From positions 1 through 28,679 of the IMG/VR virus record IMGVR_UViG_3300016476_000374: a DNA stretch of 28,679 nt; one strand, given 5' to 3'. The notes beneath the pieces are model-generated. The model saw nothing but the letters and a program-made list of their open reading frames with translations, was not told the DNA's origin and made no database searches. A program made the position numbers and the translations under genes. Shown one piece after another: positions 13,465-20,091 of the stretch. Position 1 is the stretch's first letter. Each line of letters opens with the position of its first letter. This DNA is from a virus (Duplodnaviria; Caudoviricetes).

Positions 13465-13472
13465 TATTTATC
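13465..13472 (-). promoter_or_regulatory. Late promoter GATAAATA for the baseplate operon
   Basis: Octamer about 20 nt upstream of the ATG at 13443. Confidence 0.7.
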
Positions 13473-15463: not shown

Positions 15464-17244
15464 TGTTAAAAATTAAAAATGTAAGTGCTCGAAACTTTAT
15501 GAGTATCGGCGCACAAACACAAGCAGTAAATTTTGATAATTGCAACCTCACTCTTGTACTAGGTCATAACTTAGATCTAGGCGGTGATGGTTCTCGTAAT
15601 GGTACAGGTAAGACCACAATCATTAATGCTCTAAGCTATGCACTATATGGTGAAGCCCTTACTAATATCCGTAAAGATAATCTAATTAACAAGACCAACG
15701 GCAAAGGCATGATTGTTACTGTTGACTTCGAACTCAACGGTAAAGAATATCGTATTGAACGTGGTCGTAAGCCTAACATTCTGCGTCTTATTGTAGACGG
15801 TAATGATACTGGCGACTCTTCAAACGAAGACGATGACGCACAGGGTGATAGCAGAGAAACACAAAAAGAAATTGAAAAGATTGTGGGCTTCCCACATGAA
15901 ATGTTCAAACACATTATTGCACTAAACACTTACACTGAACCGTTTCTTGCGATGAAGAGCGGTGAACAGCGTAACATGATTGAGCAACTACTAGGCATTA
16001 CTGAGCTAAGTCAAAAAGCTGATTTGCTTAAAGAACTAGTTAAAGTTACCAAGGACTCAATTAAGGAAGAAGAAATTCGCATTGCAGCAGTTAAAGCTAG
16101 CAACGAAAGAATTGAAAAGAATATCACAGAGATTGAAAGTCGTAGCCGTGCTTGGGATAAGACTAAGTCTGACAAGCTAGCCGACATGGTTGTTACACTT
16201 GAAACTCTTAATGAAATTGATATTGAAAAAGAAATTGCTAACCATAAGCACAACCAAAGTGTTAAGGAACAGACTGACGCTAAGACAGTTTTAGACAACG
16301 AAAAAGATCGTGCAGAAACTAGTTTTAATCGCAGTGTTAAGAAACTTGATGAACTAAAAAGTAACTTGCAAAAAGCACAAGAAGGTGTATGCCCGTCTTG
16401 TGGGCAAGGTACTGCACATCTTACTACACACGAAGAATACACAGCAGAACTTGTTGAAAAGATTGCTGAAGAACAAGCGTATCACGATGATCTAGAAGTT
16501 CGTATCCAAGAGTTAACTCTAGCACTAAATGAGTTTAACAATATTGCTAAGGAAGCAGATACGTTCTATAGCACATTAGAAAGTGCGCTAGAGCATAAAC
16601 ACAACCTCGACACTCTTGCAACACAATATGCAGAAAAGCTAGAAGAAAAGAATCCGTATGTTGAACAGATTGAGCAACTACGTGAAACTGGCCTTGAGGA
16701 CATTAGTTGGGATCGTATCAACGAACTAACTGCACTTAAGGATCACCAAGAGTTCTTGCATAAGCTACTTACTAGCAAGGATAGCTTTATTCGTAAGCGT
16801 ATCATTGACCAGAACATCAGTTATCTAAATCATCGTCTTGCATATTATCTAGATAAGATTGGCTTGCCTCATGATGTTAAATTTAACAGCGACCTCTCAG
16901 TAGAAATCACTGAGTATGGACGCGAACTAGATTTCGATAACTTGAGTCGCGGTGAACGCAATCGACTTATCCTAAGCCTAAGCTGGGCGTTCCGCGATAT
17001 CTACGAAAGCCTCAACCATCCAATGAACTTGATGTGTATTGACGAGCTTATTGACAGCGGTATGGATACTATGGGCGTTGAAAATGCACTGGCTATCCTA
17101 AAGAAGATGAATCGTGAGCAGAACAAGAATATCTTCCTTATCAGTCACAAAGAAGAACTAGTTGGTCGTGTTAACAATGTGCTAACAGTTATCAAGGAAG
17201 GTGGCTTTACTAGCTACAACACTGATACCGAATATGTTAATTGA
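15463..17244 (+). CDS. Recombination ATPase gp46 (Rad50/SbcC-like)
   Basis: Walker A NGTGKTT, coiled coil with CPSC zinc hook, signature LSRGE, Walker B MCIDE, H-loop LISH. Confidence 0.95.
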   Translation: MLKIKNVSARNFMSIGAQTQAVNFDNCNLTLVLGHNLDLGGDGSRNGTGKTTIINALSYALYGEALTNIRKDNLINKTNGKGMIVTVDFELNGKEYRIERGRKPNILRLIVDGNDTGDSSNEDDDAQGDSRETQKEIEKIVGFPHEMFKHIIALNTYTEPFLAMKSGEQRNMIEQLLGITELSQKADLLKELVKVTKDSIKEEEIRIAAVKASNERIEKNITEIESRSRAWDKTKSDKLADMVVTLETLNEIDIEKEIANHKHNQSVKEQTDAKTVLDNEKDRAETSFNRSVKKLDELKSNLQKAQEGVCPSCGQGTAHLTTHEEYTAELVEKIAEEQAYHDDLEVRIQELTLALNEFNNIAKEADTFYSTLESALEHKHNLDTLATQYAEKLEEKNPYVEQIEQLRETGLEDISWDRINELTALKDHQEFLHKLLTSKDSFIRKRIIDQNISYLNHRLAYYLDKIGLPHDVKFNSDLSVEITEYGRELDFDNLSRGERNRLILSLSWAFRDIYESLNHPMNLMCIDELIDSGMDTMGVENALAILKKMNREQNKNIFLISHKEELVGRVNNVLTVIKEGGFTSYNTDTEYVN

Positions 17245-18010
17245 CATACATCTAGGTCGCAATGCTGAGTATAAGTTAACTTATGAACTGTTTGACAACA
17301 GAGTTGCAGAACGTATTTGGCAGAGGTTTCAGACTAACACATTTGAGATGATTAGTCGTACGCAGTTTTACAACTTTGGTGAAACTGTCGAGTCAGTACA
17401 GCAGCAACTAGATGATTCTGTAAAGAGAATTAAAGAATTATTGCCCGGTAAATTTAATGATGCTGACGACTTAAATTTGTTGCATGTTAACTTTCCGGAT
17501 CTTGTAGAGAATACTACAGGGGAATTACGTCAAGTATTGAGTATGTTTAACTATCATCTTCATCATTTAGAAGATATATCTCGATACCAAAACAAAAGAT
17601 TTTTATTTTCTCATCAAGATCCAGGTGAGCCGCTAGAGGATAGTGATTATAAATTGTTTAGTCCCACAAGACTCAAGCATCATTTATACATGAACTACCC
17701 TCATGTAGGAAAACATATTATGGAACTGTTTTTTGATCAAGACCACAATATTCCTAGCAGTCATATTGTTCCAACTAGTTTGCTTAAGAATGATTGTGTT
17801 GCATGGTTTGCTAACGATCAATATACAGATCCAACAACTATTGTAAAGAAAGTAAAAAGATGGCTAATACCATTAGCTAGCAAATTACCATTTTCAATTG
17901 ATGATCCTAGATTAGCAATTGGACATATAGCATTAGGTAAACTTACAAGTGAACCTGATCTAAACAAAATAGCAAGCAATTGCTATATTCACAGCGTAGA
18001 AGCACGGTAA
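17234..18010 (+). CDS. Hypothetical protein (about 258 aa)
   Basis: Long ORF; ATG at 17234 overlapping the gp46 end is preferred to GTG 17201; no recognised family. Confidence 0.7.
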   Translation: MLIDIHLGRNAEYKLTYELFDNRVAERIWQRFQTNTFEMISRTQFYNFGETVESVQQQLDDSVKRIKELLPGKFNDADDLNLLHVNFPDLVENTTGELRQVLSMFNYHLHHLEDISRYQNKRFLFSHQDPGEPLEDSDYKLFSPTRLKHHLYMNYPHVGKHIMELFFDQDHNIPSSHIVPTSLLKNDCVAWFANDQYTDPTTIVKKVKRWLIPLASKLPFSIDDPRLAIGHIALGKLTSEPDLNKIASNCYIHSVEAR

Positions 18011-18055
18011 GTCAAAATACAGTTAAGTTTAATTACTCAGTATTTAAATATACTG

Positions 18056-18478
18056 ATGAATTGGACATATAAAGGTCAAACTGTAAACGAATTACCGGAA
18101 GGTACAGAAGCGTTTGTTTACTTGATTACTAACTTAACCGACAACAGAAAATATGTAGGTAAAAAGTTAGCCAAGTTTAAAAAAACTCGTCCTCCATTAA
18201 AGGGCAAGAAAAACAAACGCAGAAGTACAGTAGAAAGTGATTGGCGAGATTATTGGGGCAGTAACGATCATCTTAAAGAAGATGTAGAACGTTTAGGCGC
18301 TGATAACTTTACTAGGGAAATACTTTATTTTTGTCCTAGCAGAGGTGTAGCCAGTTATTTGGAAGCAAGAGAGCAATTTGAGCGTAGAGTACTCGAAACA
18401 GATGAATACTATAACGGTATTATCAATGTTAGAGTAGGGGGTTCAAGAATCTTGCGAGAAGCGTTGAAAGACTTATAA
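18056..18478 (+). CDS. Short single-domain GIY-YIG family nuclease
   Basis: AFVYLITN..RKYVGKK (GIY/YIG), DYWGS, FTREIL, LEAREQ (putative catalytic Glu), YYNG; no C-terminal DNA-binding domain. Confidence 0.82.
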   Translation: MNWTYKGQTVNELPEGTEAFVYLITNLTDNRKYVGKKLAKFKKTRPPLKGKKNKRRSTVESDWRDYWGSNDHLKEDVERLGADNFTREILYFCPSRGVASYLEAREQFERRVLETDEYYNGIINVRVGGSRILREALKDL

Positions 18479-18489
18479 CTACATATACA

Positions 18490-18565
18490 ACACACATGGC
18501 TTACATGGCTAATTTTATAGTCTAATCTGGCAATTTAAAACACACAATCTGGCACACACATAGGC
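18490..18565 (+). repeat. Five short degenerate direct repeats ending in TGGC/AGGC
   Basis: ACACACATGGC, TACATGGC, TAATCTGGC, ACACACAATCTGGC, ACACACATAGGC. Confidence 0.65.
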
Positions 18566-18900
18566 GCTGCACCGCCCTGCCGAGGACTATATCGGTTTCC
18601 TTGAGGCTCCTTTGCGACTAGCTAAGGCGTCAGATCTGGAATGCAGCCGGCAAGATGCAAACAACGTTATGGCATTGAAAGAATGTAGGCTCTGAGAAAA
18701 AGCAACCTACAAGTTGGTATAATCAAACTCCACTAGATTATACTGGCTTCCGAGCGAATACAAGTGACGGTAGTGTATGGGGAGAGAAGGCGCTCTGCTT
18801 CCTAACAGCACCCGGGTTGGAGATGGCGAAGCTCATCGTGATGACGCTTTTCTTTTTTATTCACCCTGCAAAGGGTGAATTATGACTCCACTATCGTGAT
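18516..18900 (+). ncRNA. Candidate structured non-coding RNA of unknown family
   Basis: No ORF; 57 of 100 bases GC in 18561-18660; stems 18566-71/18642-47, 18580-83/18592-95, 18684-89/18706-11, 18711-24/18736-49 (three G-U pairs), 18859-67/18872-80 (GCAA tetraloop). Ends uncertain. Confidence 0.6.
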
Positions 18901-18930
18901 AACTTCTTAATAATTAAATCATTAAAAAAA

Positions 18931-18999
18931 TATCTTACAAATGAATGAACTGAGTGTAACGAAGTGAATGAATGCAGTAAGATAAGACACGAAGTGTCT
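18931..18999 (+). other. Two hairpins with ssDNA-type features (tandem G.A pairs, GNA triloops)
   Basis: TATCTTAC/GTAAGATA closing a stem with three GA/GA steps and a GTA loop; AGACAC-GAA-GTGTCT. Confidence 0.65.
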
Positions 19000-19018
19000 G
19001 TTATAGTAGACTAAGTGA

Positions 19019-19252
19019 TTACATCCATTCCGTAGGTGTTTGCCCTGACTTAAGTTTATTGTAGTCATTTAGGACTTTAACTGCCATTTCTCTTTCTGAA
19101 TGGCTCATATGCCAGACTTCACTCCATGAGAAAGCCCCGTTACTGTATATAACGAGTTCTGTTAGGTTTTTCTGAAGTTCTGATGCTCCCTTTTTCAGTG
19201 ACCCCAAGTATGCAACGATGTCTTGGGGTTCAGCTGATGCTAGGAAGCTGTG
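19019..19252 (-). CDS. gp51-like segment, probably the -1 frameshift extension of the gp26-like gene
   Basis: FSWSEVWHMSHSEREM resembles gp51/tail-chaperone T-segments; frame open from the slippery site to the stop; the only start is an SD-less TTG at 19207. Confidence 0.65.
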   Translation of the reverse strand, partial: HSFLASAEPQDIVAYLGSLKKGASELQKNLTELVIYSNGAFSWSEVWHMSHSEREMAVKVLNDYNKLKSGQTPTEWM

Positions 19253-20091
19253 AAAAAATTTACTGGGTCAAAGCCAACCTCCTGCTCGAATGTTCCGTGT
19301 TCATCACATTCTAACTGGACTTTCTTATTGACGCCAATCTTACTGATCTTTTCGATAGTCTTTTCGATTTCTTTACCAATGCTGGCTTCGCAGTTTTCTA
19401 GGAACTCACGGATCTGAGCAGGATCAGTTACTACGAAATCGTCACCTTCTTCATTGTTACCGCGGATACTTGCAACAGCATCTACAGTAAGGTCAAAGTT
19501 AACACTAGCCATACGTACAAAGCTATTGTTAAATGCTTTTAGCTGTTCCATTTCATCTTCAATGGAAGCTAGACTTTGTAAGCTACGAGTGCTTTGGAAG
19601 TTAGCAATACCTGCTTTAATAGTGCTTTCGTAGCTGAATGGTTTAACTTCGATAGCCAAACCTGAAGCAGTTTCAAACGAATACGATTCTTCTAGTGTGT
19701 TCATTGTTTCTAGTGCGCCCTCGACACTAGCGATGCCAGTGCATTCTTCACCGCATGTAGGACACTTGCCTTTTACTTCAATATCGTCGCCGTAAGTAGC
19801 ACCTTGAATAGCTACTAGTAGTGTGTCGATATCGCTGCTTAACATTCTTCTAGGCTTGCGTACTGCCGGTACACAGCTTTTGATAATTTGTGAAACTGCT
19901 TCACCGTTTAGTAGTGCGTCAGGATTTTTAAGAATTGCTTCATCCTTTGCGGTGAGCGCAAATACAGCAACTTCACGTGACTCACTAAGTTCGACGATAT
20001 CGTCGGTATAAAATTTACCGCCACTAGGAAGTTTAGTGTACAGTTTTGGTGCTCTGAAATAACCACTTAAAGGATTATTTGTCTTTGGCAT
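19240..20091 (-). CDS. Baseplate hub assembly protein, T4 gp26-like
   Basis: KLPSGGKFY, LTAKDEAILKNPDALLNG, DIDTLLVAIQGATYG, CPTCG and C-terminal CDEH..NFF; AGGAG SD. Confidence 0.82.
   Translation of the reverse strand: MPKTNNPLSGYFRAPKLYTKLPSGGKFYTDDIVELSESREVAVFALTAKDEAILKNPDALLNGEAVSQIIKSCVPAVRKPRRMLSSDIDTLLVAIQGATYGDDIEVKGKCPTCGEECTGIASVEGALETMNTLEESYSFETASGLAIEVKPFSYESTIKAGIANFQSTRSLQSLASIEDEMEQLKAFNNSFVRMASVNFDLTVDAVASIRGNNEEGDDFVVTDPAQIREFLENCEASIGKEIEKTIEKISKIGVNKKVQLECDEHGTFEQEVGFDPVNFFTAS

Follow-up and report, generated by a model that had tools for sequence, protein, structure and literature searches.

A pseudoknotted element with twin boxes in Rak2-like jumbo phages and chromosomal islands, and its possible role as an RNA-primed replication origin

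The sequence analysed here (the window) is a stretch of 28,679 nucleotides making up an 8%-complete virus record, and at about positions 18560-19000 it holds an element that, by comparison with its relatives, is real, conserved and largely undescribed. The element is evidently conserved in more than 100 uncultured giant-phage sequences, and homology searches place the same family inside integrated bacterial islands of 6-14 kb. We propose, at a probability of roughly 0.45, that it may be a cis-acting, RNA-primed replication origin of the jumbo phage, resembling ColE1 RNA II and pirated by satellites. If this is true, a replication origin would be named for a large jumbo-phage clade, a function would be assigned to an orphan Rfam motif, and the replication of satellites lacking replication genes, a gap noted for some VEIMEs in the accessible text of PMC9618062, would be explained. 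Mechanism aside, a 350-nt pseudoknotted element with co-varying twin boxes, found both in lytic-type jumbo phages and in chromosomal islands, is unusual.

The window encodes baseplate, portal, protease and capsid proteins, a gp55-like late sigma factor and gp47/gp46, and its hub protein has its nearest cultured relatives in Phosso, Atu_ph07, PA5oct and RaK2; the host of the element is, to judge from these genes, a Rak2/PA5oct-like jumbo phage. The element occupies the gap between the gene for a 140-aa SegE-like GIY-YIG protein and the convergent hub gene (Table 1). A TAAATA box ahead of the nuclease gene is likely a late promoter serving both that gene and the element: copies also precede structural genes (at 13465, 20118, 20151, 23463 and 25454), and a similar motif, ATAAATA, has been described in the related phage CBB (accessible text of PMC5259590). 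The hexamer shows no enrichment across the window (20 observed against 34 expected), and 23 of 95 loci have it no more than 60 nt from where the nuclease gene starts; a promoter scan of the window, MotA boxes being outside its scope, found the late-type box alone. Transcription of the element by read-through from the upstream sigma-gp47-gp46 operon is possible as well.

Table 1. Coordinates of the element and its immediate upstream setting in the window
Feature	Position	Strand	Remarks
TAAATA box	18045..18050	+	candidate late promoter, nuclease gene and element
SegE-like GIY-YIG gene	18056..18478	+	PF19835, E 3.5e-33; customary upstream neighbour
Variable A/C-rich spacer with repeated short GGC(A) units	18479..18560	+	
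5' domain: closing helix 18566-71/18642-47 and inner helices	18566..18647	+	replaced in some relatives by a different 5' domain
Helix P4, equivalent to Methylobacterium-1 P1	18654..18676	+	
Helix P5, near-invariant loop with UG(A/U)GA (T-loop-like, 18693-97)	18685..18710	+	4/5 pairs compensatory (26 relatives)
Helix P6, the 14-bp stem of the original prediction	18712..18748	+	10/13 pairs compensatory (26 relatives); loop 18728-32 is the pseudoknot 5' strand
Junction helices P7-P9, including a G-rich strand	18751..18811	+	12 close relatives
Pseudoknot 3' strand, partner 18728-32	18818..18822	+	5/5 pairs compensatory, 97.7% paired (26 relatives)
Box 1, TCGTGAT	18836..18842	+	identical to box 2
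Hairpin P11, GCAA loop, between the boxes	18859..18880	+	4/9 pairs compensatory (26 relatives)
Box 2, TCGTGAT	18894..18900	+	closes the RNA-type domain
A+T-rich stretch	18901..18930	+	candidate unwinding element
DNA-type hairpin: stem 18931-38/18977-84 enclosing a purine-rich tandem-GA zipper, GTA apex	18931..18984	+	
Perfect hairpin, C(GAA)G mini-loop	18985..18999	+	

The structure is accepted because of covariation among relatives and not from folding energy. In an alignment of 12 close relatives 92.2% of cells are paired and 23 of 82 pairs have changed on both sides, a level reached by 0 of 500 shuffles; among 26 wider relatives the figures are 88.0% paired and 25 of 41 pairs compensatory, again with 0 of 500 shuffles reaching them, so that the stems are conserved with compensatory changes in both alignments. 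Slid controls for the 12-relative alignment reach 37-42% paired, a generous comparison given that the structure was derived from these same sequences. Related sequences can beat shuffles without having any structure, yet the slid controls stay near 40% and individual helices show several types of compensatory pair. By energy, the plus strand of 18516-18900 folds no better than chance (z -0.59, with 26 of 100 shuffles as good), the minus strand giving z +1.69 in the same test. The plus-strand reading of the original prediction is borne out all the same, with frequent one-sided changes to G-U and better folding of the plus than of the minus strand in 18 of 25 relatives.

That prediction, made from the letters alone, had described a multi-stem RNA of some 350-400 nt at 18516-18900 with a GNRA loop and two T-loop-like motifs. 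Its parts are present in the sequence: the 14-bp stem 18711-24/18736-49 with three G-U pairs, the 9-bp stem 18859-80 capped by GCAA, the GCTGCA/TGCAGC helix closing a domain at 18566-71/18642-47 (compensatory changes at 3 of its 6 pairs among the 12 close relatives), and the loops UUGAAAG at 18675-81 and CUGAGAA at 18692-98. A multi-stem fold of roughly 350 nt stands, and its boundaries have to be moved, as no conserved structure can be aligned at 18516-18560 and the 3' end reaches beyond 18900 to about 19000. A reading as two T-loops in the manner of RNase P or T-box RNAs is not supported, since the first motif, UUGAAAG, is retained in only 11 of 115 unique relatives and Rfam gives no match; the second, nearly invariant as UG(A/U)GA, was not seen to be closed by any fixed Watson-Crick pair of the T-loop consensus and can be called T-loop-like. 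Likewise GCAA is present in the window, but a GNRA loop occurs in just 61 of the 115 unique relatives. The window has no match in Rfam at the cut-off or at a meaningful E-value. A distinct RNA transcribed from the element is proposed; contigs from four RNA runs cover parts of it and those from two probable DNA runs look alike, and with strand and level unreadable they give no evidence of expression.

Within the core, the junction bases and the CCG following P4, P5 and P6 are invariant in the 26 wider relatives, and P9, invariant in the 12 close relatives, is unsupported by covariation there. The pseudoknot withstands cross-pair controls: an element's own two strands form a run of at least six Watson-Crick pairs in 71 of 115 phage copies, against 93 of 600 cross pairs, and in all 10 island copies, where the pseudoknot is thus retained throughout, against 12 of 82 cross pairs. 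Ahead of the RNA, three to five repeats of the short GGC(A)-containing units separate it from the nuclease stop in the window and in L055, L060 and L224, and have an iteron-like or primase-site-like look.

A pair of identical boxes flanks P11. Of 162 type A loci (the core type of the window), 159 were long enough and 154 could be anchored, giving 115 unique phage elements, and 110 of these carry an identical 7-mer at both box positions, compared with 508 of 10,658 cross pairs with different boxes (4.8%) that share a 7-mer. Two of the 110, L134 and L184, are counted through a neighbouring 7-mer; their true boxes differ at one base, an A/T difference inside the box that the origin model does not tolerate. 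The boxes fall into 27 7-mer classes, a few of them one box in shifted register, and take more than 20 sequences overall. No co-varying complement of the box was found inside the element, where Watson-Crick complements occur in 11 of 110 (5.2% for foreign boxes) and, G-U allowed, in 57 of 110 (46.8% for foreign boxes). RNAalifold's long-range pairing of 18764-75 with box 2 was rejected, because in the wider subclass box 2 varies and that strand does not. Given identical boxes with no partner in the RNA, the simplest partner would be the opposite DNA strand, or a protein. At the position following the box, box 1 has G against A in box 2 in 78 of 107 elements and never the reverse, and three island copies show, by eye, the same G-for-A inside the box; because box 1 carries G there in 97 of 107, the asymmetry may reflect a plain conserved G.

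Beyond box 2 the sequence changes character. Mean A+T over the first 50 nt from box 2 is 0.70-0.75, against 0.48-0.62 upstream (77 loci), a modest rise given a genome background of about 0.61-0.65. The stem 18931-38/18977-84 has compensatory changes in L055 and L060 and a DNA fold z of -3.2; its tandem G-A pairing was read off the sequence and was not predicted by the folding program. In 77 tails the loops are C(GAA)G (29), C(TTC)G (16), C(TTTA)G (16) and C(GTA)G (11). C(GNA)G, read on one strand or the other, predominates; the apices of the zippers are mostly GNA and non-GNRA GNNA, in a count that took in whole loci and so includes some background. Mini-hairpins of the GNA and GNNA kind are stable in DNA, weaker in RNA, and found at the G4 and ssiA priming sites (accessible text of PMC13037366), and we read the tail as a probable single-stranded DNA structure. 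The tails of two island copies, L392 and L396, contain a CCGAAGG hairpin identical to the mini-hairpin that the same text reports for the ssiA priming signal.

Among phages, a scan for the type A loop gave at least 119 viral loci among the matches listed, and we estimate about 490 stretches. Collected by nuclease instead, 80 loci were obtained, 64 of them with at least 450 nt downstream, and 60 of these 64 carry a type A (33) or a type B (27) core. Type B cores (L015, L016, L035, L038 and others) substitute the P4-P9 region and retain the twin-box domain and hairpin tail, and 5' domains are mixed between the types; because model R1 barely detects type B (L016, E 0.008), homology of the two rests on the common twin-box domain, partly by eye. 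The element is present in one copy each in G001, G003 and G004. In 50 unique loci collected by RNA, with at least 900 nt upstream, the nuclease is directly adjacent in 38, further off in 3 and undetected in 9, and nuclease homologs stand without the element in L046, L049 and Melnitz (71% identical); the nuclease is dispensable to the element, a usual neighbour and no obligate partner. By eye, nuclease-less loci place the element after a sigma-70-like promoter (L174), after a late box and a small basic ORF (L128, L155), or after a resolvase-like ORF (L116). One phage fragment with nuclease, element and hub extension (L328) was binned in a bacterial MAG.

The models found no homolog in the cultured relatives PA5oct, Phosso, Atu_ph07, RaK2 and Melnitz. 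The long syntenic gaps of Phosso (L100 7235-8250) and PA5oct (L099 6525-7900) adjoin RNase HI and Holliday-junction resolvase genes, the RNase HI gene adjoining the Phosso gap, and by eye both gaps contain hairpins with GA-zipper or GAA motifs; R1, R2 and the island HMM gave no match in either, and a blastn search of the window's own gap against 50,697 phage records returned chance matches only. A near-consensus sigma-70 promoter precedes the PA5oct gap. The four ncRNAs of PA5oct were rejected as homologs, being located elsewhere according to the accessible text of PMC7318152.

Copies in cellular genomes were sought with an 18-mer, which gave about 120 matches, mostly chance (about 139 expected by arithmetic). 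The closing stem was present in 12 of the 120, of which 10 were studied in context and two (L375 and L384) left out; one further locus was found independently with RF01712, making 11. Five of these are flanked by att repeats, in L388, L389, L392, L393 and L400, at spacings of 6.2, 10.3, 11.3, 9.1 and 13.6 kb; detected tRNA genes correspond to three of the repeats and the pntB end to a fourth, and the fifth is tRNA-like by eye. Four other loci are short or cut by contig ends, the repeat in L390 does not flank the element, and L393 touches a contig end yet is complete. The att-flanked islands carry a tyrosine integrase together with a serine resolvase or a second tyrosine recombinase. No Rep, primase or helicase family was found among 75 ORFs searched with Pfam and 42 with PHROGs (the ORFs of L400 were inspected by eye only); most island ORFs belong to no family, and an unrecognised Rep is possible. 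Two of the hosts have no metagenome-assembled label in their record titles, and one cellular genome has three copies.

Several parts of the phage element recur in the island copies. Exact twin boxes of at least 7 nt are present in L390, L392, L393 and L396 and near-identical ones in other copies; the hairpin tail is visible in all nine copies whose contig reaches far enough; and the phage-late box, TATAAATA or ATAAATA, lies 134-205 nt upstream in 6 of 10 copies and is found in L400 too. Homology between the phage and island forms is chained, because R1 reaches the islands and R2 reaches six phage loci: R1 matches L388 at 50.9 bits, a score inflated by the 18-mer used to find that locus, and R2, a model of the island 3' halves with the 18-mer left out, matches L064, a phage locus, at E 4e-8 and, among the 23 sources, a further five phage loci at E<=0.01, the window not being matched. 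A sequence-only HMM of the island 3' halves matched L064 only, missing the window and all 80 of 80 loci collected by RNA. Three islands share an ORF of about 220-250 aa (L392 12227-12982, L393 9086-9829, L400 7284-7934) that has no Pfam or PHROG family and a similar aromatic-rich N-terminal stretch, and that might encode a regulator or a hidden replication factor. A carbonic anhydrase and a UmuD-like fragment are among the island cargo (L388 13017-13763; L390 14541-14882).

Small mobile elements of comparable design have been described. VEIMEs are small integrative elements with a tyrosine integrase, some also with a serine recombinase and some without known replication genes, like the islands, and the word 'noncoding' is absent from their main text (PMC9618062); PICMIs are marine phage satellites that we liken to the islands (PMC10803314). 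Unlike either, the islands appear to have a structured element and a late promoter in common with a jumbo phage, and their mobilisation is a proposal of ours.

Among known RNA families, Rfam gave no match at the cut-off for the window, 20 relative loci or five cultured-phage loci, and Polynucleobacter-1 (RF01718, cut-off 37 bits) matched neither the window nor five phage records. A likeness was found to Methylobacterium-1 (RF01712; Weinberg et al. 2010, PMC2864571), in whose accessible description three helices followed by CCG are equivalent to P4-P5-P6 and their invariant CCG, and one seed row carries the loop GGCUCUG...GCAACC, similar to that of the element. Against the 40-bit cut-off of this family L345 (49.9) and G031 (49.0) pass and L329 (35.3) and L395 (36.4) fall short; because two island copies exceed the cut-off, Methylobacterium-1 can be taken as a central fragment of the element family. 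Of 151 genomes from one genus RF01712 matches 2, and of 151 from a family it matches 0, the copy known in that family being missed as well; nor does it match the window at E<=10 or five further phage records. Methylobacterium-1 is about 103 nt long, with no function found in the accessible text of PMC2864571, whereas the element measures about 350 nt plus its tail, and the pseudoknot partner, twin boxes and DNA hairpins fall outside the model. The window element would be a distant and much longer relative of this orphan motif, and is no member of it by score. The literature searched holds no description of the element and none linking its phage and island forms; the motif strings are absent from the readable tables of PMC10690425, whose alignment archives were unreadable and may catalogue short fragments.

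Were the element an origin, its plus strand would be transcribed and the folded transcript would expose box 1, which would pair with the template DNA strand under box 2 as the polymerase passes and seed a persistent RNA-DNA hybrid into the A+T-rich stretch. The displaced strand would then form the GNA-loop and tandem-GA hairpins and load a helicase or primase, or the RNA 3' end would itself prime. Islands would excise upon infection and transcribe their own copy from the phage-late promoter, the helper would replicate them, and the island resolvase would resolve the multimers. The proposed likeness is to ColE1 RNA II, a folded transcript that pairs with its template in a persistent hybrid, the displaced strand loading helicase or primase, and that requires an RNA stretch pairing with the template strand (accessible text of PMC4412123 and PMC5043065). 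ColE1 RNA II uses an rG/dC stretch on a plasmid, whereas the seed here would be the variable 7-mer twin box, in a phage and island setting; the twin boxes fit a downstream pairing segment of that type, but are not G-rich and admit other readings. A blastn search of 18560-19000 against 72,556 plasmids gave two 32-nt chance matches.

The twin boxes, the A+T stretch, DNA hairpins on the non-template strand, the single copy and Rep-less islands with resolvases all fit an origin. T4 oriF and oriG offer a second likeness in their promoter, transcript, A+T-rich downstream element and position near transcriptional divergence, active T4 origins lying near gene-strand switches (accessible text of PMC3016281). 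In the window, G002 and G003 some 5 kb separate the element from the main divergence of gene strands, and in G001 it also lies close to a strand switch; because these relatives share synteny, the positions amount to little more than a single observation. According to the same text, T4 R-loop formation is independent of specific sequence, and oriF and oriG have middle promoters that are shut off late, a late promoter having been raised for oriC; here a 350-nt conserved fold and twin boxes are under selection, and the late type of the promoter, found for 6 of 10 cellular copies as well as for the window, counts against an origin. So do the shortness of a 7-bp hybrid, the lack of a model-detected homolog in the five cultured relatives, the finding of an RNase HI family gene in none of five phage records, and a synonymous-site skew that peaks at the element in one of six tests only (G001 T-A).

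A late promoter would suit a packaging signal coupled to transcription: by binding the DNA it came from, the late transcript would flag that DNA for cutting or loading by terminase, and islands would have copied the signal in order to be packaged. T4 terminase contacts the late sigma factor gp55, and extracts deficient in gp55 package concatemers about 100-fold worse (accessible text of PMC3012670); twin boxes and DNA hairpins suit any action in cis on the element's own DNA, and among L001-L080 contig ends concentrate at the element, the 600 nt downstream of the nuclease holding one in 21 of 80 loci and the upstream side in 2 of 80. These ends are scattered and do not mark a single position, however, and are better explained by strong conservation between strains; in G001-G003 a distance of 50-72 kb separates the terminase gene from the element, and islands without Rep would still need a means of replication, which leaves packaging an unlikely account. 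We regard as quite improbable an RNA acting in trans as a scaffold or sponge, with a dimeric protein bound to its twin boxes; in islands such an RNA would be a phage-triggered defence decoy. The elaborate pseudoknotted fold and near-invariant loop, the Mrr-type or HNH nuclease genes of some islands and a late promoter suited to infection-triggered expression all speak for it, but boxes that take over 20 sequences even among close relatives, island copies that retain a resolvase and a DNA-type tail superfluous for a pure decoy, and RNA-library contig coverage no different from that of probable DNA runs speak against it.

The compact conserved core, with its pseudoknot and invariant junction bases, would also suit a ribozyme or an element for processing, one that cleaves itself or matures the transcript of the late operon; yet no Rfam ribozyme or intron matches, the element interrupts no gene, and the twin boxes and DNA tail would be left unexplained. 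One low-depth contig joint omits 18500-18652, with unknown letters between, and a second contig check found none; we hold this account to be very improbable. HEARO and OMEGA are nuclease-RNA systems with obligate linkage, and the core found downstream of nearly every nuclease could be taken for the guide or partner RNA of the GIY-YIG protein in a ribonucleoprotein of that kind. That linkage is not kept here: the nuclease is undetected upstream in the nine phage loci mentioned and in the island ORFs scanned, its homologs occur without the element, and no hypervariable guide was seen, so that such a partnership is scarcely credible. Taking the origin reading together with the islands and the Rfam motif, Rak2-like jumbo phages would begin replication at a self-addressing RNA, which uses a freely variable 7-nt box to capture the template strand at the locus that encodes it, and an undescribed class of Rep-less satellites would have pirated this RNA-plus-hairpin origin under a phage late promoter, to be replicated by the helper's replisome, with Methylobacterium-1 as its core; as a whole, this joint reading is doubtful.

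Several observations concern the neighbouring genes. The 269-aa ORF between gp46 and the nuclease (17201-18010) has no Pfam or PHROG family, and the label 'NAD synthetase' that PHROG 447 gives to the family of the GIY-YIG protein conflicts with its Pfam match to SegE_GIY-YIG. On the minus strand, a slippery T-run shortly before the hub stop is followed by a conserved short ORF (19019-19262) that extends the hub gene in the -1 frame, likely by a programmed frameshift yielding short and long assembly chaperones, as in the G/GT frameshift of lambda.
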